Source of the DNA: an uncultured Clostridia bacterium
Lineage (GTDB): Bacteria > Bacillota > Clostridia > Christensenellales > Aristaeellaceae
Length of the DNA stretch: 41,208 bases
Assembly (NCBI GenBank): GCA_946626395.1
Contig: CAMOUF010000159.1
Coordinates: 1 to 41,208, forward strand
Direction: 5' to 3'
Shown here: one piece after another, positions 55 to 41,208 of the stretch
Layout: every line of letters starts with the position of its first letter
How positions within the stretch are numbered: position 1 is the first letter of the stretch
Program-made: the position numbers and the translations under genes
The notes under the pieces: generated by a model
The model's database searches: none
What the model was told of the DNA's origin: nothing
What the model saw: only the letters and a program-made list of their open reading frames with translations

Positions 55-123
55 CGGCTAGGAGTACTATGTCTATTAACAGCAACTACTGCTCCCCCCC
101 AGAAATAGTTACTTAAAGTGCTC
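55..123 (-). repeat. Degenerate E2-like element (minus orientation) overlapping the 3' end of the XRE gene
   Basis: The minus strand reads GAGCACTTTAAGTAAC...GGGGGAGCAGTAGTTGCTG-TTAATAGACATAG-TACTCCTAGCC. The CACTTTAAGT(A/T)AC terminus and TTAATAGA core start match the 3051 copy. The arms are badly decayed. Confidence 0.3.
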
Positions 124-620: not shown

Positions 621-790
621 GCGAATAGATAAAAGGCAATAGACGAAAGCGTACAGCGTGCAGAGAACAGAGCACACACAAGGAAAGCAGCCAGACTCAG
701 AATAACAAAAAAATCTGAACTCTGTACTCTTCCCTCTGAACTCTCTATCTCTCCAATTGCCTATTGCCTTTTGCCTTCTGCCTATTGCCT
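621..790 (+). repeat. E1-type nested inverted-repeat element, copy a
   Basis: The left arm has AGGCAATAG then GTACAGC GTGCAGA GAACAGA. The core is related to the 26581-26636 core (GCAGAGAACAGAGCACACACAAGGAAAGCAGCCAGACTCAGAATAAC...ATCT). The right arm has TCTGAAC TCTGTAC ...CTCTGAAC then ATTGCCT ATTGCCT TTTGCCT TCTGCCT ATTGCCT. Complementarity is imperfect. Confidence 0.75.
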
Positions 791-829
791 GGTGACTGAA
801 AACGCTCTGCAAATGATTGTTTACGATGC

Positions 830-3050: not shown

Positions 3051-3179
3051 GAAACACTTTAAGTTACCAAGTTAGGAGTGAGGAGTGAGGAGTGAGGAGT
3101 TAATAGATTGCGCTTCGCTTTGAACAATTTTCAACTCCTCACTCCTAACTCCTCACTCCTAACTGATATAAAGTGTTCG
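3051..3179 (+). repeat. E2-type nested inverted-repeat element, copy a (cleanest copy)
   Basis: AACACTTTA (3053-3061), then 4x AGGAGT[GT] (3074-3101), then the 31-nt core AATAGATTGCGCTTCGCTTTGAACAATTTTC, then 4x [AC]ACTCCT (3133-3160), then AACTGAT and TAAAGTGTT (3169-3177). Arms are complementary at 27/28 positions. The terminal inverted repeat is 9 bp. Confidence 0.9.
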
Positions 3180-4537: not shown

Positions 4538-4609
4538 GCTTTCTCGGAGGGAGGTGTGGGGGGACCCGCTCTTTGGCATCCAAAGAGCGGTTCCCCCCAC
4601 AAACTTTTA
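4538..4609 (-). repeat. E4-type palindromic element, copy b (inverted relative to copy a)
   Basis: GCTTTCTCGGAGGGAGGTGTGGGGGGACCCGCTCTTTGG-CAT-CCAAAGAGCGGTTCCCCCCACAAACTTTT. The stem pairs at 20 of 21 positions around a 3-nt loop. Confidence 0.9.
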
Positions 4610-5367: not shown

Positions 5368-5388
5368 AACCCTCCAATGAAAAACACA

Positions 5389-5420
5389 CCGCTCCGGCAC
5401 AACGCCGGAGCGGCTTTTTA
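5389..5420 (+). terminator. Rho-independent terminator downstream of the 4738-5367 gene
   Basis: CCGCTCCGGC-ACAAC-GCCGGAGCGG followed by CTTTTTAT. The stem is a perfect 10 bp. Confidence 0.8.
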
Positions 5421-5823: not shown

Positions 5824-5890
5824 GCTTTTCTCGGATGGGGGTCTGGGGGAAACCGCTCTTTGGGCTCCAAAGAGCGGTTTCCCCCAGAGA
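5824..5890 (-). repeat. E4-type palindromic element, copy c
   Basis: GCTTTTCTCGGATGGGGGTCTGGGGGAAACCGCTCTTTGG-GCT-CCAAAGAGCGGTTTCCCCCAGAGA. The stem is a perfect 21 bp. Confidence 0.9.
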
Positions 5891-7137: not shown

Positions 7138-7279
7138 AGAGTTCAGTGTACAGAGTACAGAGTGCAGATAAACTTTGTCTGGCATGATTGCAAGCAATCA
7201 TGGGGAAAGCAAACGAATCTGAACGCTGTACTCTGCACGCTGAACACTCGTTTTCCTATTGCCTAATGCCTATTGCCTG
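7138..7279. repeat. E1-type element, copy b (inner arms complete; outer CCTATTG arm only on the right)
   Basis: GTTCAGT GTACAGA GTACAGA GTGCAGA ... core with the perfect palindrome CATGATTGC-AA-GCAATCATG (7183-7202) ... TCTGAAC GCTGTAC TCTGCAC GCTGAAC ... CCTATTG CCTAATG CCTATTG CCT. Confidence 0.8.
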
Positions 7280-7299: not shown

Positions 7300-10116
7300 T
7301 TATTCCTCCACCCGCTTGAGGCGATAGGTGGTTTTGGATTTGATGTGGCGCAGGGTCAGGGCGTTTTGCTTCAGGGACACGATTTCATAGGTAGCGGCGG
7401 TGGGGCTGGGCTCCTCGCCGGTATTGACCGCGTACATGTTGGGCACGAAATAGTAGGCTTCCTGGCCGTCCAGGGTGCAGGTGCCATCCTCCCTGAAATC
7501 AAAGCGCTGTCCCTTATCCGTTTCCCACTGGCCCATGATCCGGTACACCGCCTTGTCCACCCGGTTGGCCACATCCCTGTAATTCATGATCTGCCTGTAA
7601 TAGATCAGCGCCTCAAAGGGCTGGCGGTTGTTGTACAGGGCATTGGCGTACAGGTAGCAGGCGTTCTGATACATGGCGGGGATCTGGGCGTAAGCGTCGG
7701 TGAGGTATTCGTCCCGCAGGGGAGAGAGCACCTCGATCACAGTCAGGTAATCCTTTTCCTCCATGGCGGCCTGGGCGGCGCTGTAAGCGGCGGCACAGTA
7801 TTCATCGGCGCACTGCTTCGCCTTTTCCTGAGCATCCTGATAGGCCCCGGCTTTCACGAACATGGACGCGGCCAAGGCCACATCCCCTTGCTCCAGGGCT
7901 TCGCTGCCCGCCAGATAGGCCAGCTCCTGGAGCTTCAGGCGCACGTCGGCGGCGGGAGACTCGATCTGGCTCAAAATATCCACGGCGGCGGTCAGGTCGC
8001 CCGCGTCGGATTCCTCCATGGCCAGGGAATACATGGCCCGCTGATACTGCACGGGGGAATCGCTGTAATCGCCCAAGGCCAGGAAAGCATCCCGGGCCTG
8101 GGCGTATTCGCCCGCTTCCTTCCATTGCAGCGCCAATTGATACTGGGCCTCCCGCAGGGCGGCGCGGGTATCCTCGTTTTCAGCGTTTCCGGTGAGCAGG
8201 GAAACCACCTGCTCGTACTGGCCCATTTCGTTCATGCCCTGGGCCACGCCCGCCAGGGCCACGGCCAGATGCGTCCGGGCGTCCCGATAATCGCCCACCT
8301 GGGTCAGCAGGCCCACGGCGTTTTCGTAATCCTGGGCGTCCATTTGCTCCATGGCCTTCGTGTACAGGATCTGGTTAATGTAATCCGCCGCCTTGCCATA
8401 ATCGGAAATGGTGCTCAGCAGTGCCAGCGCGCCTTCCTGATCCCCGTTTTCCAGCATGCTCAGGGCGGGGCGGTACACGCATTCCTTCTTGGCTTCCTGG
8501 GCGGCCAGCAGGTCGGGGGCCAGGTCAAAGAAGGAAGCGGCTTCTTCATATTTTCCTTCCGCCATCAGGGCCGCGCCCTGATAGTAATAGCACTGCATGA
8601 GCAGGGCCTTGGAATCCTGGAAGCCGGTGATCTTTTCCAGCATGGACGCGGCCTTGGCGTAATCGCCCTCGTCCATGGCCGCCACGGCGGGCGCGTACAG
8701 GCACCCCGCCGCCCGGCGGGAAGCGTCGGAATAATCGCCCGCGGCCAGAAAATATTCCGCGGCGGCGTCATAATCATGATCGGCAAACGCCTGATCGCCA
8801 GCCGCATAATTGGCCCGCTGCAATTGGATCGGGGAATCCCGGTAATCGCCCAATTCGGTAAAGGCGGCGATGGCTTCCAGCGGGTCGCCGTCGTTGGCCA
8901 GAGCCTCCAGGGCGGGCTGATACAGGCATTCCTTGGCGTTGCTTTCGGAATTCTGGAAGGAGCCCAGGGACAGGAACTTGGCCCGGGCGCCTTCATAGTC
9001 CTTTTTGCTCATCAGCTCCAGGGCCCATTCGTATTCCGCCTGGCTGCGTTTCATGCGGGCGTTGCTGTAATTGGGCACCGTTTCGTACAGGGCGATGGCC
9101 TCGGCCCAGTTGCCCGCGGCCAGCAGCTTATCGGCGTACACATAGCGGGCTTCCTGGGCCCGGATGGCGCTGTCCTTATAGCCGCCCAGGGCGTCAAAGC
9201 CGTTCTGGGCCGCCCGGAGGGAGGTATAGGTGCCGCCGTTCAAGGCGTTCATGGCGGCGCGGTAATCGCATTCCAGGGCCAAATCGGCGCTGTCCTGATA
9301 ATCGCCCAGGGCCAGAAACTGCTCCTTGGCGGAATCAAACTGACTGTTTTCCAGGGCACGGTTGGCCTGGTAATAGCGATAGTAAGGAATGCCGTGGAAG
9401 AAAATGCCGTACACCAGGGCTAGAGAAAGCAGGATCGTAATCAGGGTGGTCAGGATGATCCTGCGGCGGCGGCGCAGCCTGCGCTGCCTCGCTTCCCGGA
9501 CGGCGTTCTGCCGCCGGGCTTCCTCCCGCTGGTGGCGTTGCTCCTCCTCCATCACGGACTGGCGCTGGAAAATGACCCGTTCGATGGCCGCTTCATTGAG
9601 CTGGGTAAAAATCGCGTGCTTATCCCGGCGGCAGCGGCGGCACACATCCTCATGGGCGGAATTGGGCCGGCCGCACACGCACACCCACACGGCCCCCTGG
9701 TCGCTGGGATAGCTGGCCGCGTCCCGGCCCGCCAATTCCTGCATCACCTGCAATTGGGGCCCCTGCAGCAGGGGCGAGGGGCGAAACTCCATGGGCTCGG
9801 CCAGGCCCCGCCGCCAGACGGTGTTGTCGTCAAACCACACCTTCTCGATCAGCACCTCGATGTCCTGGGCCAGGGCGGCTTCTTCCAATTCCAGCCCGGC
9901 TTCAAACACGTGGCGGGCAGGGCCGTCCAGCCCCAGGATGCGTTCCACATGGCGGGCAAAGCGCTCCCCCTGGGCATCAAAACAATGCACGCATACCTGG
10001 ATGCTGCGCACGTCCTTGTCGCTCAGGTTGTATATCTGCATGGTCAGGGCGGGATCGTCCGGAGACGGCATCCTGCAATGCCACAATTCCACAGGTGAGG
10101 TCAGGTCAATTCGCAT
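7300..10116 (-). CDS. Large single-pass membrane protein: N-terminal domain, zinc ribbon, TM helix, then at least 13 TPR-like 'LGDYxDS' repeats
   Basis: 938 aa. It has CVCGRPNSAHEDVCRRCRRDK (zinc ribbon), the Arg-rich segment RQRRLRRRRR, and the TM helix IILTTLITILLSLALVYGIFF. Then come repeats of about 36-40 aa of the form A..F..LGDY.DS......C.Y..A (for example FLALGDYQDSADLALECDY, FTELGDYRDSPIQLQRANY, FLALGDYSDSPVQYQRAMY). Confidence 0.8.
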   Translation of the reverse strand: MRIDLTSPVELWHCRMPSPDDPALTMQIYNLSDKDVRSIQVCVHCFDAQGERFARHVERILGLDGPARHVFEAGLELEEAALAQDIEVLIEKVWFDDNTVWRRGLAEPMEFRPSPLLQGPQLQVMQELAGRDAASYPSDQGAVWVCVCGRPNSAHEDVCRRCRRDKHAIFTQLNEAAIERVIFQRQSVMEEEQRHQREEARRQNAVREARQRRLRRRRRIILTTLITILLSLALVYGIFFHGIPYYRYYQANRALENSQFDSAKEQFLALGDYQDSADLALECDYRAAMNALNGGTYTSLRAAQNGFDALGGYKDSAIRAQEARYVYADKLLAAGNWAEAIALYETVPNYSNARMKRSQAEYEWALELMSKKDYEGARAKFLSLGSFQNSESNAKECLYQPALEALANDGDPLEAIAAFTELGDYRDSPIQLQRANYAAGDQAFADHDYDAAAEYFLAAGDYSDASRRAAGCLYAPAVAAMDEGDYAKAASMLEKITGFQDSKALLMQCYYYQGAALMAEGKYEEAASFFDLAPDLLAAQEAKKECVYRPALSMLENGDQEGALALLSTISDYGKAADYINQILYTKAMEQMDAQDYENAVGLLTQVGDYRDARTHLAVALAGVAQGMNEMGQYEQVVSLLTGNAENEDTRAALREAQYQLALQWKEAGEYAQARDAFLALGDYSDSPVQYQRAMYSLAMEESDAGDLTAAVDILSQIESPAADVRLKLQELAYLAGSEALEQGDVALAASMFVKAGAYQDAQEKAKQCADEYCAAAYSAAQAAMEEKDYLTVIEVLSPLRDEYLTDAYAQIPAMYQNACYLYANALYNNRQPFEALIYYRQIMNYRDVANRVDKAVYRIMGQWETDKGQRFDFREDGTCTLDGQEAYYFVPNMYAVNTGEEPSPTAATYEIVSLKQNALTLRHIKSKTTYRLKRVEE

Positions 10117-10181: not shown

Positions 10182-10297
10182 GATTCAGTTCTAAGTTCCA
10201 AGGTCTAAGTTCTAAGCATAATTGTCCAAATGCATCAGCACGCAAATTTGTTTTTAAACATTATCAGCTTGGAACTTGGAACTTTGAACTTAGAACT
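10182..10297. repeat. E3-type nested inverted-repeat element, copy a
   Basis: GATTCA-GTTCTAA GTTCCAA GGTCTAA GTTCTAA-GC ... 48-nt core ... AGC-TTGGAAC TTGGAAC TTTGAAC TTAGAAC. Confidence 0.85.
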
Positions 10298-10303
10298 CTT
10301 TCG

Positions 10304-11440: not shown

Positions 11441-11566
11441 CCTCTCCCCTATTGCCTCATACTTAATACCTATTGCCTAATGCCTATCACCTATTGCCTA
11501 ATGCCTATCACCTATTGCCTAATGCCTATTACCTATTGCCTAATCCCTGACTCCTCACTCCGCAAG
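11441..11566. repeat. One-armed tandem array of 18 phased heptamers CCTNNNN (E1 outer-arm type) with a 21-nt super-period
   Basis: CCTCTCC CCTATTG CCTCATA CTTAATA CCTATTG CCTAATG CCTATCA CCTATTG CCTAATG CCTATCA CCTATTG CCTAATG CCTATTA CCTATTG CCTAATC CCTGACT CCTCACT CCGCAAG. The last units overlap the pdp stop codon (11555-11557). Confidence 0.9.
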
Positions 11567-18766: not shown

Positions 18767-18880
18767 ATCATTTACAGAACACTTTAAATCAGTTAGGAGT
18801 GAGGAGTTAGAAGTGAGGAGTTAATAGTTTGCGCTTTGCGCATAAACAATTTTCAACTCCTAACTCCTCACTCCTAACTC
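18767..18880 (+). repeat. E2-type nested inverted-repeat element, copy b
   Basis: GAACACTTTAAATCAGTT-AGGAGTG AGGAGTT AGAAGTG AGGAGTT-AATAGTTTGCGCTTTGCGCATAAACAATTTTC-AACTCCT AACTCCT CACTCCT AACTCCT-AACTGATT. The core is colinear with copy a. Confidence 0.9.
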
Positions 18881-18913
18881 CTAACTGATTGGAAGGACGA
18901 AACGATTACCGCT

Positions 18914-24754: not shown

Positions 24755-24886
24755 ATTGCAGAGTACAGAGTGCAGAGAGTATAGCCTGACATAAGCAACG
24801 AATCCAGACTTGGAACGACTAAAAATATCTGCACGCTGAACGCTCGTCTTCCTATTGCCTAATGCCTGTTGCCTATTGCCTTTCGC
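24755..24886 (+). repeat. E1-type element, copy d (the left outer arm is missing)
   Basis: ATTGCAGA GTACAGA GTGCAGA ... core GAGTATAGCCTGACATAAGCAACGAATCCAGACTTGGAACGACTAAAAATATCT ... TCTGCAC GCTGAAC GCTCGTC TTCCTAT TGCCTAA TGCCTGT TGCCTAT TGCCTTT. The 7-nt phase is unbroken across both arm types. Confidence 0.85.
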
Positions 24887-26498: not shown

Positions 26499-26718
26499 GC
26501 ACTTTAAGCGAAAAGGCAATAGCATTAGGCAATAGGCATTAGGCAATAGACGAGAGAGCGCAGTAGACTGAGTTTAAAGCGCAGAGAATAGACGGACACA
26601 AGGAACGATTGCAGACTTGGAATCACTATAATATCTATCCTCTGAACTCTTCAAGCTGAACTCTAATTCTTCTATTACCTATTGCCTTTTGCCTTTTGCC
26701 TAATCATTTAAAGCGTTC
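26499..26718 (+). repeat. E1-type nested inverted-repeat element, copy e (largest, with both tiers of arms)
   Basis: GCACTTTAAGCG-AAA-AGGCAAT AGCATT AGGCAAT AGGCATT AGGCAAT-AGACGAGAG...core 26581-26636 GCAGAGAATAGACGGACACAAGGAACGATTGCAGACTTGGAATCACTATAATATCT...CTCTGAAC..GCTGAAC...TATTACC TATTGCC TTTTGCC TTTTGCC-TAATCA-TTTAAAGCGTTC. Confidence 0.9.
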
Positions 26719-28350: not shown

Positions 28351-28397
28351 ACGTCACCACATCTGTTTGTTGCGTTTAAAAAGTATCCAAGTAAAAA

Positions 28398-28601
28398 CTG
28401 ATCAATTCAAAATAGCTTATAAAGATACAATGTAAGGAACGGTCAAAGGGTAGGGGCGTTTATCTCCGCCCGTAAAGCAGGCATTACAAATGTTGGGAGA
28501 ACAAGTACATGAAATAATTCTCTTGGGCGGGCGGATATTATCCGCCCCTACAAGTCGCCCAGCCAGCAATCGTATAAAAATAAATTGATTTGAATTGATC
28601 A
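28398..28601. repeat. E5: MITE-like nested palindrome inside the ABC operon
   Basis: The outer inverted repeat is a perfect 13 bp: TGATCAATTCAAA (28399-28411) and TTTGAATTGATCA (28589-28601). The inner inverted pair consists of two small hairpins: GTAGGGGCG-TTTATCT-CCGCCCG (28450-28472) and CGGGCGG-ATATTAT-CCGCCCCTAC (28526-28551). The centre is AT-rich. Confidence 0.8.
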
Positions 28602-28622
28602 TTCTTTACACAAGTGAATCAT

Positions 28623-28692
28623 GCAATAGACGATAGAGTGCGAAGCGCAAACTATGAACTCCTCACTCCTAACTCCTCACTCCTCACTGATT
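28623..28692. repeat. Chimeric E1/E2 element (E2 copy c)
   Basis: GCAATAGACGATAGAGTGC (compare GGCAATAGACGAGAGAGCGC of E1 at 26542-26561), then TGCGAAGCGCA, a small hairpin with opposite polarity to the E2 core, then the E2 right arm AACTCCT CACTCCT AACTCCT CACTCCT CACTGATT. There is no E2 left arm. Confidence 0.7.
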
Positions 28693-29760: not shown

Positions 29761-29845
29761 AAAAGGCTCAATGTAAAAGTTTGTGGGGGGAACCTCTCTT
29801 TGGATGCCAAAGAGAGGTTCCCCCCACACCCCCCTCCGAGAAAGC
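29761..29845 (+). repeat. E4-type palindromic element, copy d
   Basis: AAAAGGCTCAATGTAAAAGTTTGTGGGGGGAACCTCTCTTTGG-ATG-CCAAAGAGAGGTTCCCCCCACACCCCCCTCCGAGAAAGCA. The stem is a perfect 21 bp. Its CCTCTC/GAGAGG is a compensated variant of CCGCTC/GAGCGG. Confidence 0.9.
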
Positions 29846-30890: not shown

Positions 30891-30985
30891 CAATAAGGAA
30901 TTAGGAATAAGGAGGCTGGAGTGAATCGCCTGCGCTTCGCGCATTGAACAATTTTCAACTCCTCACTCCTAACTCCTCACTGATC
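30891..30985 (+). repeat. E2-type nested inverted-repeat element, copy d (left arm carries G-to-A transitions)
   Basis: Left arm AAGGAAT TAGGAAT AAGGAGG (30895-30915). The core is ...CGCCTGCGCTTCGCGCATTGAACAATTTTC. The right arm ACTCCTCACTCCTAACTCCTC (30958-30978) is followed by ACTGATC. Confidence 0.85.
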
Positions 30986-30986
30986 A

Positions 30987-31841
30987 TTACTCCAATCTTT
31001 CCAGACACTGGTACAGCCGATCCAATTCGTCCTCGCTGTAATACTGGAGGATGATTTTGCCGCGCTTGCGGCTGCCCTTGAGTTGGGTGCGCAGGCCGAA
31101 GGTTTCCCGCAACCGGTTTTCCATGTCCTGCAATTCCAGAGGCAGGGGCCGGGGCTCGGGCTTTTTCCGGGGCAGGACTGTGGGCTCGGCGGCCATCTTT
31201 TCCAACTGCCGCACGCTCAGGCCCTCCAGGATCACCGCCTGGGCCAGAGCGATCTGCCGCCGCTCCTCCTCGATGCCGGCCAGCACCCGGGCATGGCCCG
31301 CGGACAGGCGGCCCGCGATCACATCGTCCTGCACCGTCTTGGGCAGGTTCAGCAGCCGCAGCAGGTTCGCCACCGCGGGGCGGGATTTGCCCAGCCGTTT
31401 GGCGGCCTGCTCCTGGGTGTAATGGCATTCTTCCATGAACTGCTTCACTGCCGCCGCCTCTTCAATGGGGTTTAAATCCTCCCGCTGCAGGTTTTCGATG
31501 AGGGCGGCTTCCATTTGCTCCTGGGGCGAAAAATCCCGCACGATGCAGGGCACGGATTCCAGCCCCGCGATCCGCGCGGCCCGGAACCGGCGCTCCCCCG
31601 CCACGATGCGGTAGCGCCCGTTTTCCTCCACCACCAGCAGCGGCTGCAGCACCCCCGCCGTGCGGATGGAGTCTGCCAGCGTTTGCAGGGCCGCTTCGTC
31701 AAAATCCCGCCGCGGCTGCTCCGGATTCCGGTCGATCTCCGTCACCGCGATCATGCTGACCATGTTGTCCAGATCGTTGCTCTCAGGCAGCAGGGCGTCC
31801 AGCCCCCGGCCCAGCCCCATTTTTTTCATAGCGCGTTTCAC
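30987..31841 (-). CDS. spo0J: Chromosome partitioning protein ParB/Spo0J
   Basis: GLGRGLDALL, EIDRNPEQPRRDFDE..L..LA.SI...GVLQPLLV, and RYRIVAGERRFRAA are canonical ParB boxes. The start is ambiguous: GTG at 31841, or ATG at 31829 or 31820. Confidence 0.95.
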   Translation of the reverse strand: MKRAMKKMGLGRGLDALLPESNDLDNMVSMIAVTEIDRNPEQPRRDFDEAALQTLADSIRTAGVLQPLLVVEENGRYRIVAGERRFRAARIAGLESVPCIVRDFSPQEQMEAALIENLQREDLNPIEEAAAVKQFMEECHYTQEQAAKRLGKSRPAVANLLRLLNLPKTVQDDVIAGRLSAGHARVLAGIEEERRQIALAQAVILEGLSVRQLEKMAAEPTVLPRKKPEPRPLPLELQDMENRLRETFGLRTQLKGSRKRGKIILQYYSEDELDRLYQCLERLE

Positions 31842-31898
31842 CCCATCAGCATCTCATTCCAACATAAAAGAAGCTATGTTGAAAACCCGGCTTTTTCG

Positions 31899-31946
31899 CT
31901 TTTCATTTCTGATTCGACAGGCGAATTCCTCTTATCTATATAGACG
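31899..31946. repeat. Short perfect inverted repeat in the soj-spo0J intergenic region
   Basis: TTCTGATTCG (31899-31908), 28 nt, then CGAATCAGAA (31937-31946). It contains the CTGAT/ATCAG words that border the E2/E3 arms. It is not a parS match. Confidence 0.5.
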
Positions 31947-32011
31947 AATCAGAATACGAAAATGTTCCGTTGATTTTGAAAAAAATGAATCTTTGGAAGT
32001 TTTGCACAAAT

Positions 32012-32779
32012 TTACTTTTTTGCTTTGTTCTTTTTGATAATTTCCTGAGCCAATGCCCGGTACGCCTCCGCGCCGGAGCTGCGGCTGTCGTACAGATTGA
32101 TGGGCAGGCCGTGGCTGGGGGCCTCCCCCAGGCGTACGTTCCGGGGCACGGTGGTTTTGAACACCTGCTGTTTAAAGTGCTTCTTCACCTCCGCCACCAC
32201 CTGTAAGCCCAGGTTGGTGCGGCCGTCCAGCATGGTCAAAAGCACGCCTTCGATTTCCAGGCCCGGATTCAGCCCCCGCTTCACCCGCTGCACTGTGTTC
32301 ATCAGGGCCGTGACCCCTTCCAGAGCATAGTATTCGCACTGAATGGGAATCAGCACGCTTTGGGCGGCGGTGAGGGCGTTGATGGTGAGCATGCCCAGGG
32401 AAGGGGGGCAGTCCACGATAATAAAATCATAATCCTTCCGGCAGGGCTCCAGCGCTGCCCTCGTCCGGTATTCCCGGCGGTCCATGCCCGCCAGTTCCAG
32501 CTCCGCCCCGGCCAAACGAATGTCCGACGGGGCCACGAACAGCTTTTTCTGCTTGGTTTTTTCCACGGTGCTTTCCAGGGGGCATTCCCCCAGCAGCACT
32601 TCATACACCGTTTTCTTTCCCGCCCGGACGCCCAGGCCGCTGCTGGCGTTGCCCTGAGGGTCCATATCCACAAGCAACGTGGGCTTGCCCTCATCCGCCA
32701 GACAGGCGGCCAGGTTCACAGCCGTGGTGGTTTTTCCCACGCCGCCTTTCTGGTTGGCGATGCAAATAATTTTCCCCAT
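32012..32779 (-). CDS. soj: Chromosome partitioning ATPase ParA/Soj
   Basis: The deviant Walker A is IANQKGGVGKTTTAVNLAA. Also present are LLVDMDPQGNAS and FIIVDCPPSLG. Confidence 0.95.
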   Translation of the reverse strand: MGKIICIANQKGGVGKTTTAVNLAACLADEGKPTLLVDMDPQGNASSGLGVRAGKKTVYEVLLGECPLESTVEKTKQKKLFVAPSDIRLAGAELELAGMDRREYRTRAALEPCRKDYDFIIVDCPPSLGMLTINALTAAQSVLIPIQCEYYALEGVTALMNTVQRVKRGLNPGLEIEGVLLTMLDGRTNLGLQVVAEVKKHFKQQVFKTTVPRNVRLGEAPSHGLPINLYDSRSSGAEAYRALAQEIIKKNKAKK

Positions 32780-34575: not shown

Positions 34576-34626
34576 CGGATCATCTCCTGTAATTTTCGTT
34601 TCTTGTCAGCGGCGCGGGAATAAGTT

Positions 34627-34740
34627 ATCAGTTCTAAGTTCCAAGTTCCAAGCAAATATAGCCGAGCGGGCAGTAAGCCAATGCGTTGCCACGGGAAAAA
34701 CATTGTCGTCAAATGAGCTTAGAACTTAGAACTTGGAGCT
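34627..34740. repeat. E3-type nested inverted-repeat element, copy b
   Basis: TATCA-GTTCTAA GTTCCAA GTTCCAA-GC ... 62-nt core ... GC-TTAGAAC TTAGAAC TTGGAGC. Confidence 0.85.
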
Positions 34741-35640: not shown

Positions 35641-35780
35641 GATCAAGTTCTAAGTTCTAAGCTCCAAGTTCCAAGCTGATTTTGTTCCTCTTTTTCGCGC
35701 ATAACAGACGGAAGACATTTCCGCTTAGAACTAAGAACTTAAAACTTTGAACTAAGAACTATGAATTGAAAACTGATCAA
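35641..35780. repeat. E3-type nested inverted-repeat element, copy c, between xpaC and telA
   Basis: GATCAA-GTTCTAA GTTCTAA GCTCCAA GTTCCAA-GCTGAT ... core ... GC-TTAGAAC TAAGAAC TTAAAAC TTTGAAC TAAGAAC TATGAAT TGAAAAC-TGATCAA. Confidence 0.85.
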
Positions 35781-38700: not shown

Positions 38701-38772
38701 GGCTTTCTTGGAAAGGGGTCTGGGGGAAACCATTCTTTGACCTCCAAAGAATGGTTTCCCCCAGCGTCTTTT
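38701..38772 (-). repeat. E4-type palindromic element, copy f
   Basis: GGCTTTCTTGGAAAGGGGTCTGGGGGAAACCATTCTTTG-ACCT-CCAAAGAATGGTTTCCCCCAGCG. Its CCATTC/GAATGG is a doubly compensated variant of CCGCTC/GAGCGG. Confidence 0.9.
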
Positions 38773-38791
38773 CCTCGTTAGAAAGGTTCTT

Positions 38792-39982: not shown

Positions 39983-40023
39983 TGAAGAATCTGTTTGGCC
40001 CTGGGCTTTTGCGGAAACACTTT

Positions 40024-40193
40024 AAGGGAATAGGCAATAGGCAATAGGAGAACGAGAGTTCAGAGTGAAGAGTTCAGAGTTCAGATATTTTAGTCATTTC
40101 AAGTCTGGATGCGATTCTTTTGTCCGTCTATATTCTCTGCACTCTATCCTCTATTGCCTATTGCCTAATGCCTATTGCCTATTCACTTCAAGT
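40024..40193 (-). repeat. E1-type nested inverted-repeat element, copy f (core inverted relative to copies a, d and e)
   Basis: GAAACACTTTAAGGG-AATAGGC AATAGGC AATAGG-AGAACGAGA-GTTCAGA GTGAAGA GTTCAGA GTTCAGA-core (40093-40150 is the reverse complement of the 26581-26636 core)-...CTCTATCCTC-TATTGCC TATTGCC TAATGCC TATTGCC TATT. Confidence 0.9.
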
Positions 40194-40272
40194 ATTCTTT
40201 TAACGTCTTCGCCCTTTTCGAAGAAAAAAATTACTAATTGGGAAATTTTCTTCACAATTTCTTCATAAATGC

Positions 40273-40358: not shown

Positions 40359-41208
40359 ATGAAGAAAGTTTTCGCGCTTGGTTTGCTGGCCTTGCTGCTG
40401 TTCTGCGCAGCGTCCGCCTCCGCCGCCATCTATGTGCCCAAACACATTTCCGAGTTTTACGGGCTGCCCAATACTCCTCCCCTTTCCAGCTTTGCCCGGA
40501 TGAAGACCAAACAGGTGGAGTATGAAGTTACCATCTATTTGAGCCAGGCTGTGGAGAGCTTGTCCGCCAACTGGCTGGAGTACAATAACGAGCACTTTGA
40601 GGATCTGGAGATCACGGAAGAAGGCGATCTTTTTATCGCCTATTTGAACACCTTCGGCCACAAGTACCAGGTGGGCGCCCACTGGACGAATGTGTACGCC
40701 ACGGCGACGCCCCCGGCTCAGCCAATTGAGCATGAGATGAGTCTATATAAACCCACTCCTAAACCTAATGTTACTCCCAAACCTAATGTTACTCCCAAAC
40801 CTAATCCTACTACTACAACGGAGCATCTAGCCGGGTATCTTGAAGGTTCTTCGACAGTTATCAATTTTACCAATCCCAGCCAAGTTGAAGCTGATATTCA
40901 GGCCGCCAGAAAGAAAGCAGAAGACAGAGCGGATGACTTCGACGTTTACTCTTTGACTTCCAATAAAAATATCCCTGACAATTATTACTGCGTAAAAGTA
41001 GAAGAGCCCTATTACGCCGTGGTGCGCGTCCTGGATAACGATCAGTTCTGCATCGTGTCCCGCTACCGCTATACTGCCAACGCTGATGCGATCCAGGTTC
41101 CCGCTGGCTGCAAGCTCTATAAGGTAAACGGTTATGTCACCGCCTGGCATCCCACCTACGCCGCATCGGACGGCACCTCCAACGGCCGCTATGTGGAAGC
41201 CTATTACA
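40359..41208 (+). CDS. Secreted hypothetical protein with a TPKPNV linker repeat (3'-truncated by the window end)
   Basis: Not in the supplied ORF track because no stop is reached. My own translation from the ATG at 40359 is open to 41208: MKKVFALGLLALLLFCAASASAAIYVPKHISEFYGLPNTPPLSSFARMK...TPKPNVTPKPNVTPKPNPTTTTEHLAGYLEG...YVTAWHPTYAASDGTSNGRYVEAYY. It has a signal peptide, a promoter and an RBS upstream. Confidence 0.7.
   Translation, partial: MKKVFALGLLALLLFCAASASAAIYVPKHISEFYGLPNTPPLSSFARMKTKQVEYEVTIYLSQAVESLSANWLEYNNEHFEDLEITEEGDLFIAYLNTFGHKYQVGAHWTNVYATATPPAQPIEHEMSLYKPTPKPNVTPKPNVTPKPNPTTTTEHLAGYLEGSSTVINFTNPSQVEADIQAARKKAEDRADDFDVYSLTSNKNIPDNYYCVKVEEPYYAVVRVLDNDQFCIVSRYRYTANADAIQVPAGCKLYKVNGYVTAWHPTYAASDGTSNGRYVEAYY
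40755..40808 (+). repeat. 3 x 18-nt in-frame tandem repeat (TPKPNV/TPKPNV/TPKPNP) inside the last CDS
   Basis: ACTCCTAAACCTAATGTT / ACTCCCAAACCTAATGTT / ACTCCCAAACCTAATCCT. Confidence 0.9.

Follow-up and report, generated by a model that had tools for sequence, protein, structure and literature searches.

Here, we describe a set of intergenic repeats in a stretch of 41,208 nt from an uncultured Clostridia bacterium (GenBank assembly GCA_946626395.1, contig CAMOUF010000159.1, positions 1 to 41,208; hereafter, the window). Within these 41 kb lie 13–14 intergenic elements of about 110–220 bp, all non-coding and built alike: about 4.4 tandem heptamers make up the first arm (31 nt being the modal length), 30–60 nt of asymmetric core follow, and the second arm is the reverse complement of the first. 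These elements probably form a superfamily of small, non-coding, non-autonomous foldback repeats, which spread as copies and whose arms are remodelled by slippage in 7-nt steps. They have spread as copies to unrelated loci, and they land in short spacers directly behind stop codons. Turnover is fast, such that the same site holds different elements in sister species. After an element is in place, most changes to its arms add or remove entire 7-nt units, each arm varying independently of the other.

The element at 3051–3179, of the type termed E2, serves as the reference. A previous reading, made from the sequence alone, had laid out this copy as AACACTTTA (3053–3061), a linker, four AGGAGT(G/T) units (3074–3101), a 31-nt core (3102–3132), four (A/C)ACTCCT units (3133–3160) and TAAAGTGTT (3169–3177), and this layout is correct. 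The core includes a small GCG-CTT-CGC hairpin, and the predicted RNA fold of the whole element has a free energy of −71 kcal/mol (z −11.6). A 15-nt terminal inverted repeat (TIR), GAACRCTTTAAATCA, is present on E2 elements, on E1 elements (AGGCAAT and AGAGTNC arms) and on some copies of E3 (AGTTCTA arms), and is best regarded as an optional part of the plan; in elements of the AGAGTAC type, the inverted termini consist of the heptamer arms only. Tandem Repeats Finder detects period-7 arrays at every copy listed by the sequence-only reading, and an inverted-repeat search pairs these arrays. The idea of one architecture in several heptamer flavours is upheld. It had also been remarked that the 7-nt phase persists across a junction of two heptamer types. 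This is true, but it is not an independent regularity: the same junction sequence recurs in three copies (at 7240, 24845 and 40048), pointing to one ancestral event.

The heptamer signal greatly exceeds chance. Over the intergenic DNA of the window, identity at a lag of 7 nt is 0.334, compared with 0.2565 ± 0.006 in shuffled sequences and 0.255 in coding DNA, and the signal is echoed at lags 14 and 21. We took a census of arrays in the window and 46 loci from relatives, counting any partner within 160 nt. Of 77 period-7 arrays, 52 have a reverse-complement partner and none has a direct partner; no inverted partners were found for arrays of period 6, 8 or 9. Arm length is sharply peaked at four units plus three bases, with 25 of the 77 arrays measuring 31 nt and 50 measuring 30–33 nt (median 4.4 units). 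The possibility that the cores are themselves decayed heptamers was considered and set aside, the lag-7 identity within cores (0.301, versus 0.279 ± 0.012 in shuffles) being unconvincing.

Further copies elsewhere, which the sequence-only reading had proposed as a test, were found. A scan with the E2 core returned 35 more E2 copies in public metagenome contigs, none of them orthologous to the window locus, and the element at 3051–3179 belongs to the same family. These copies define a sharp consensus with a perfect 15-nt TIR. Its left part reads GAAC(G/A)CTTTAAATCA-G-[AGTTAGG AGTGAGG AGTTAGG AGTGAGG AGTT], followed by the core AATAGTTTGCGCTTCGCGCAATAACAATTTTC; to the right of the core it continues [AACTCCT AACTCCT CATTCCT CACTCCT CAC]-TTGG-TGATTTAAAGTGTTC. 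A second E2 subfamily has a core about 25 nt longer. The flanks diverge just beyond the 15-nt TIR, with a weaker palindromic likeness extending about 10 nt further. In 14 of the 35 cases, the contig ends at the element.

The same plan is found in relatives of the window (individual contigs and loci are denoted by L numbers). L003, with 61% protein identity, carries elements of the same kind made of further heptamers (ATTCGTA, AGATAGG and ATCCCTA), and elements are also present in L009, L010, L011, L012, L017, L033, L036 and L049; many equally related genomes have none, and L006, L008 and L016 are sisters free of such elements. Across species the dimensions are constant: each arm, left or right, measures about 31 nt, and the spacer between them 41–61 nt. 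A TIR related to GGACACTTTAA flanks both AGGAG-type and AGGCAAT-type elements in several species. The cores are family-specific; for the AGAGTAC type, homology is recognisable between cores of the window and those of L009, with both orientations represented.

Comparison of orthologous spacers reveals filled and empty sites. Between the Flavin_Reduct gene and dnaX, the spacer is empty in L013, L021, L022 and L027, amounting to just 18–45 nt including the ribosome-binding site; in L003, L009, L049 and the window it holds four different heptamer elements, each 0–18 nt past the stop codon, and in L006 it holds an unrelated GC-rich hairpin repeat. The junction of the two GerM genes (GerM1 and GerM2) measures 19 nt without an element in L017 and L019, and the genes overlap in L003; the same junction is filled by an AAAAGTG element in L011, an AGGTAGG element in L012 and an E1 element in the window. 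The region downstream of GerM2 contains a canonical bidirectional terminator in both L011 and L019. In L017, an AGAGTAC element is inserted beside such a terminator, which is intact; in L012 the terminator gives way to an AAAAGTG hairpin with A and T runs at its sides.

A recent change of position is seen between L003 and L033, which are 98.5% identical. Here, the two share a segment of 130 nt at 100% identity, made up of the left arm and core together with most of the right arm and a portion of the TIR, but its site differs and its orientation is reversed. One junction of the relocated segment falls inside the TIR and the other inside an arm. The surrounding region (L003 13029–13993, L033 8023–8855) shows a complex rearrangement around a gene of 178 aa that lies between two AGATAGG elements: of these, one has moved and been inverted, the gene has lost about 90 nt at its 5′ end, and at the other site a different repeat is present. 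The elements appear to mediate local rearrangement.

Copies differ from one another by whole units. The right outer arm of the E1 element at 26499–26718 has one extra CCTATTG unit (+7 nt) in the same-species contigs L001 and L002 relative to the window; a single element compared between L003 and L033 has a left-arm difference of +7 nt and a right-arm difference of −7 nt; and E2 copies combine two, three or four left units with four right units, or four left units with three right units. These differences indicate that arms change by whole units and without coordination between the two, as slippage predicts. The heptamer flavours are all linked by at most two substitutions after rotation, and their mean distance (2.78, versus 3.11 ± 0.11 for random heptamers) is weak evidence for common descent and homogenisation.

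The sequence-only reading had seen in the preserved period and complementarity either selection on structure or a mechanism that generates it. Selection on structure is not upheld. In addition to the unit losses confined to one arm, the E2 master copy carries conserved T·C and G·A mismatches at the variable heptamer position, which are uncompensated, non-wobble and inherited by the copies. Among 830 arm positions in 29 elements, 119 are mismatched (G·T 22, A·C 23, other 74), with no excess of wobble pairs on either strand, and no compensated mismatches were seen in the arms. Cores have no preferred orientation relative to the direction of flanking genes (++ 3, −− 4, +− 4, −+ 2). A T-rich tail follows the right arm in 3 of 31 elements and is present on the opposite strand in 8 of 31, implying that most elements are not canonical terminators, and a consensus terminator scan does not pick them. 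Across these tests we find no sign of selection for RNA pairing, and complementary arms are best explained by descent from an inverted duplication, supplemented now and then by conversion. As regards a generating mechanism, slippage in 7-nt steps does remodel the arms, but it does not explain the origin of the insertions.

How might such elements arise and move? The arms would descend from inverted duplications and be topped up by conversion, either from arm to arm or from copy to copy, and the heptamer flavours would descend from one another by substitutions followed by homogenisation. Movement without target-site duplication could be effected by a hairpin- or single-stranded-DNA-specific enzyme acting in trans, or by recombination between copies. 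As a by-product, a transcript that crosses an element would fold into a stem of at least 30 bp, and this stem could protect the 3′ end of the mRNA, be cut by RNase III, or partly terminate transcription.

Several points weigh against such an account. Neither the window nor any other locus covered was found to encode a transposase or another gene for mobilisation, in keeping with the earlier statement that the elements, if mobile, are non-autonomous. No target-site duplication is seen at about 20 complete E2 copies or in comparisons of filled and empty sites; element flanks instead tend to extend the palindrome. Likewise, about 1.1 Mb of clade and metagenome loci contain no TIR pair spaced at the size of an insertion sequence (IS), as an autonomous partner would have, and the 76 TIR matches in viral contigs are all due to chance, with no adjoining heptamers. 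Because the junctions of the L003/L033 relocation lie inside repeats, homologous recombination or gene conversion could explain it in place of transposition. Similarly, the repeated filling of one site by different elements could reflect site-specific exchange rather than independent insertion. Finally, the prevalence of 30–33-nt arms across unrelated flavours suggests a length constraint, which neutral slippage does not explain.

It is also possible to view the elements as cis-acting RNA structures (unusual terminators, attenuators, or stabilisers of 3′ ends akin to the REP sequences of E. coli operons) which the host maintains for the hairpin they form in mRNA. In line with this, they lie directly past stop codons, the stems predicted for them have high stability, the gaps of the window have few predicted canonical terminators, and the AAAAGTG hairpin of L012, with its A and T runs, replaces the terminator of L011 and L019. 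We nonetheless consider this explanation unlikely. A T-rich tail after the right arm, or an A-rich run before the left arm, is found in just 3 and 8 of 31 elements, respectively; the element in L017 sits beside an intact canonical terminator; and elements occupy divergent promoter regions as well as operon spacers where the genes of relatives overlap. The absence of orientation preference and wobble excess, the conserved uncompensated mismatches and the one-arm unit losses argue in the same direction. Another alternative is that each element is generated in place, by polymerase slippage with a preference for 7-nt steps, which expands a seed beside an existing hairpin, and by template switching that copies it to the other arm, such that the copies are convergent. 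Heptanucleotide arrays are, according to the work cited in PMC4679880 (Mrazek 2007), the commonest long simple-sequence repeats of prokaryotes, for which an explanation based on the polymerase footprint has been proposed. Unit-wise insertions and deletions are indeed observed, the array at 11441–11548 has one arm only, and heptamer hairpins of many different units occur in phage and other contigs. Against this stand the empty sites, which hold no seed resembling the at least 110 nt inserted, the cores and 15-nt TIRs that are conserved across unrelated loci and species, and the identical 130-nt segment at two sites in sister strains. The conserved cores and TIRs argue against an origin of the insertions in place, though not against remodelling of the arms in place; as an account of the elements themselves, generation in place is quite improbable.

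The omega ribbon-helix-helix repressor of inc18 plasmids binds cooperatively to 7-bp heptads, and the 7-bp register and the direct and inverted blocks of about four units match its heptad operators. The heptads might, then, be protein-binding sites of the omega type or, as proposed for Xanthomonas, regulatory repeats that form G-quadruplexes (G4), which AGGGATT and AGGGAAT flavours could do (PMC4692102). Both possibilities are remote. A single lineage has more than ten unrelated heptamer sequences, the arrays are copied together with their cores, and they are placed past stop codons rather than at promoters. G4 formation is further countered by the fact that most flavours lack G runs: runs of three G are confined to AGGGATT and AGGGAAT, and none is present in AGAGTAC, AGTTCTA, AGGCAAT, AAAAGTG or ATTCGTA. 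We give almost no credence to the notion that the elements are invertons, with the arms as the inverted repeats of an invertase and the core as a promoter. This notion derives from the many cores that end in a −10-like CTATATAA or TATAAT beside the right arm, and from homologous cores that are oriented both ways at different loci. However, no flip polymorphism is seen in about 12 same-locus comparisons between samples, and the opposite core end carries a mirror image of the −10-like motif (TTTATA), which is expected if the stem is extended by AT-rich sequence. Moreover, cores of 30–60 bp are very short for invertase synapsis. A promoter inside the core can be dismissed more generally, as the motif is mirrored and a consensus scan places no promoters in the elements. 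A reading of AGGAG-type arms as Shine-Dalgarno sequences was likewise rejected, most flavours being unlike Shine-Dalgarno sequences.

The elements of the window are as follows (z values refer to predicted hairpins).

3051–3179, plus strand: complete E2; TIR 3052–3066, left arm 3070–3101 (AGTTAGG/AGTGAGG), core 3102–3132, right arm 3133–3164, TIR 3164–3178.
18776–18891, plus strand: E2 with the left TIR only (GAACACTTTAAATCA); arms 18791–18821 and 18855–18886; in the spacer from Flavin_Reduct to dnaX; z −9.2.
28623–28692, plus strand: E2 half-element, consisting of core and right arm (28658–28688), with a REP-like element in place of the left arm; identical in the same-species contigs L001 and L002.
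30891–30985, plus strand: E2 with a degenerate left arm of AATAAGG type (30892–30925) and right arm 30958–30981; ends 5 nt from the parB stop codon; z −4.0.
55–123, minus strand: remains of a decayed E2-like copy, in which one TIR survives (GAGCACTTTAA, minus-strand reading from 123).
621–795, minus strand: E1 composite; left arm 634–678 in a single 7-nt phase (outer AGGCAAT unit 634–640, then inner units), inner right arm 714–744, outer right arm of CCTATTG type 756–790; relative to the reference orientation (L009 5499), the core is reverse-complemented.
7138–7278, plus strand: E1; inner AGAGTNC arms 7138–7169 and 7217–7248, outer array on the right only (7255–7278); z −7.4.
24755–24883, minus strand: E1 between two GerM genes, beginning 5 nt past a stop codon; short inner left arm 24755–24777, inner right arm 24828–24850, outer right array 24851–24881; this half-element alone gives no structure signal (z +1.3).
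26499–26718, minus strand: complete, nested E1; TIR, outer AGGCAAT arm 26514–26549, degenerate inner arm, core, inner arm 26633–26668, outer arm 26672–26704, TIR; z −4.8.
40015–40196, plus strand: complete E1; TIR 40015–40025, outer arms 40025–40048 and 40151–40183, inner arms 40055–40085 and 40131–40150; core inverted relative to other E1 copies.
11441–11548, no strand assigned: one-armed array of CCTATTG type, in which a super-period of 21 nt overlies the roughly 15 units; 6 nt separate its end from the stop codon of the gene for pyrimidine-nucleoside phosphorylase.
10182–10300, plus strand: E3; AGTTCTA arms 10187–10216 and 10268–10297, 51-nt core; z −7.0.
34621–34737, no strand assigned: E3 in a divergent promoter region; arms 34621–34652 and 34715–34737; z −2.9.
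35641–35774, no strand assigned: E3; arms 35644–35675 and 35727–35765; begins 5–8 nt past the stop codon of the upstream gene; z −3.7.

Close to its first nucleotide, the window has 18 consecutive T (8–25), beside the decayed E2 remnant. All four E2 copies have the same orientation on the window strand, a number too small for testing replication-strand bias.

The window is about 60% GC and carries sporulation and housekeeping genes, including yabQ, two genes for GerM-domain proteins, dnaX, pdp, parA/parB and telA. Its proteins are closest to those of metagenome-assembled genomes from uncultured Clostridia of rumen and gut, which bear the labels Clostridiales, Christensenellaceae or Oscillospiraceae, with 99% identity for one same-species match and at most 62% for the others. 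Exact-protein look-ups with two window proteins gave no additional same-species contigs. The parB and parA (soj) genes lie at 30987–32779, and GC skew is uniformly negative over the whole window, on which account the window may be near the replication origin, with the plus strand lagging. Between two unannotated minus-strand open reading frames (ORFs), at 40755–40805, lies an 18-nt tandem repeat (ACTCCCAAACCTAATGTT, 2.8 units), which may encode a short peptide repeat.

The gaps between these genes are largely occupied by repeats. Of the 20 gaps of at least 100 nt on our gene map, 13 contain a heptamer element and 3 another hairpin repeat, giving about 16 of 20, compared with 17 of 20 in the sequence-only reading. 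For at least 7 of the 13 elements, the distance to a stop codon is 10 nt or less. The places of insertion include spacers internal to operons and also divergent promoter regions (34621 in the window; 8128 in L003). Canonical terminators are few among the predictions in these gaps, and the sole strong bidirectional intrinsic terminator of the window, at 5388–5414, has a 12-bp GC-rich stem with T tails on both strands. A second dispersed repeat, a near-perfect 22-bp GC-rich hairpin with a 3-nt loop (TCTGGGGGAAACCGCTCTTTGG / CCAAAGAGCGGTTTCCCCCAGA), has copies at 4555–4601, 5842–5888, 29782–29828 and 38710–38774 of the window, and at about 4305–4350 of L006, in the Flavin_Reduct-dnaX spacer.

Hairpins of heptamers are not confined to this clade. 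A scan of IMG/VR contigs with two arm patterns returned 100 loci, 36 of which contain heptamer hairpin pairs, with units such as ATTTTGG, GAGAGTT, AGAGTCG, GAATGCA, AGCTATT and CTGACTC. One contig, L132 (IMGVR_UViG_3300037843_000663), is a phage or prophage with capsid, portal, terminase (TerL) and S49 protease genes; between 507 and 8262, nearly every gap between its structural genes has heptamer hairpins, of AGGAGNT and ATTTTGG types, with arms of up to 92 nt. In tblastn searches of the dense viral contigs against named phages, the only matches were at 35–41%, to phages of unrelated hosts. The IMG/VR hairpin pairs, together with the phage L132, imply that the architecture is much wider than the Clostridia clade. 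One could go further and suppose that hairpins with arms of about four heptamers, as in the rumen Clostridia, Xanthomonas and many IMG/VR contigs, constitute a widespread, unrecognised class in bacteria and phages, with a dedicated mechanism that makes or moves them and sets the 7-nt register and the arm of about 31 nt. We hold this to be a tentative and rather doubtful extension; candidates for such a mechanism would be a hairpin-specific single-stranded-DNA enzyme or templated fold-back synthesis. If true, it would account for the predominance of heptamers among the long simple-sequence repeats of prokaryotes.

Whatever their wider distribution, the elements have practical consequences. They break metagenome assemblies, as the contigs that end in one attest, they can seed rearrangements, and they put stems of at least 30 bp inside operons of uncultured rumen and gut Clostridia. 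The present lineage is also a clean system, with dozens of copies, more than ten flavours, a fixed arm length and a defined TIR. It additionally offers insertions and sister-strain relocations that can be dated, as well as a phage crowded with hairpins of this kind. With these assets, the origin and spread of heptamer arrays, and their inverted pairing, become testable.

Finally, we compared the elements with known repeat systems. Rfam returns no matches at gathering thresholds; at E ≤ 1 it returns only models of plant miRNA precursors (25–41 bits versus thresholds of 72–135), which are generic matches to a long hairpin. The elements are also distinct from REP, ERIC, RUP, Correia and CRISPR sequences, as had been stated, and in the literature we found no description of such elements in Firmicutes. 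The broader statement that they belong to no described family is thus correct with respect to Rfam, but is overstated, since heptamers of cyanobacteria, and inverted arrays of about four heptamers in Xanthomonas (PMC4692102), resemble them.

Compared with bacterial MITEs (transposable elements of miniature size with inverted repeats), such as Correia/NEMIS, RUP and ERIC, the elements are similar in being shorter than 500 bp, non-coding, multi-copy and intergenic, in having TIRs and long hairpins, and in their presence/absence polymorphism; intergenic MITE copies are also co-transcribed. They differ in that no target-site duplication is seen, no cognate IS was found in the roughly 1.1 Mb of loci covered, the arms are strict 7-nt tandem arrays, and there is no likeness of sequence or to Rfam models. 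With REP/REPIN/BIME sequences they share dense intergenic hairpins, inverted pairs, a lack of target-site duplication, and insertion hot spots. REPs, however, are GC-rich palindromes of 20–40 nt with a GTAG-type head, whereas the arms described here are AT-rich, 31 nt long, made of tandem heptamers and devoid of a GTAG head; furthermore, neither the 41-kb window nor the fragments of relatives, of up to 22 kb, contain a gene for RAYT or another transposase. The window does have a REP/REPIN-like pair at 28391–28609 (units at about 28433–28463 and 28521–28552), which is of a distinct family and consists of two inverted copies of GTAG + GGGCGGATA(T/A)TATCCGCCC inside a 41-nt inverted repeat. In L033, a related REP-like element at 8023–8113 has the ..AGTGTCC terminus of heptamer elements and replaces one at the same site, which suggests that the repeat families have common ends or common target sites. 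In eukaryotes, Foldback (FB) transposons, which are kilobase-sized, have inverted arms of 10–31-bp tandem units, a non-repetitive middle and variable arm length. The likeness to these is one of architecture only, and serves as an analogy.

The closest parallels are among tandem heptamers of other bacteria. Those of cyanobacteria are known as STRR (Mazel 1990, as cited in PMC4692102 and PMC4679880), and heptanucleotides in general, as summarised in PMC4679880, are the commonest long simple-sequence repeats of prokaryotes, for which polymerase footprint and slippage have been proposed as the explanation (Mrazek 2007); in Beggiatoaceae, direct repeats of TAACTGA lie just upstream of start codons (PMC4679880). 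Like these, our elements have tandem 7-nt units at many intergenic loci and change copy number by whole units. Arrays of the STRR and TAACTGA type, in contrast, are mostly single and unpaired, often of ten or more units, and have no hairpin plan, core or TIR. We find arrays of AGGAGTT type that resemble the E2 arm (CCTAACT/TCCTAAC), of about 10 units and unpaired, on plasmid pA of the cyanobacterium Kovacikia minuta (L152, 19977–20052 and 25936–26004) and, similarly, in Sulfurovum mangrovi of the Campylobacterota (L151, 19997–20065). Genomes of Xanthomonas contain about 185 arrays of GGGAATC type, mostly of four units and 89–93% intergenic (Rehm et al. 2015, PMC4692102). These arrays follow the upstream ORF at a mean distance of 28 nt and are far from the next, form 70–75 inverted pairs per genome, vary in length between related species, show no strand or replication bias, and have been read by the authors as G-quadruplex DNA (PMC4692102). 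The likeness extends to a 7-nt unit with one or two variable positions, about four units per array, a location downstream of ORFs, inverted pairs and a potential stem-loop. Yet each genome of this Gammaproteobacterium has one G-rich flavour, compared with more than ten in the Clostridia, most of them unable to form G4; and the TIR, conserved core, nesting and copy-spread of the Clostridia elements are absent from the Xanthomonas description. The elements of the window are, then, an unusually rich variant of a known yet unexplained kind of repeat.

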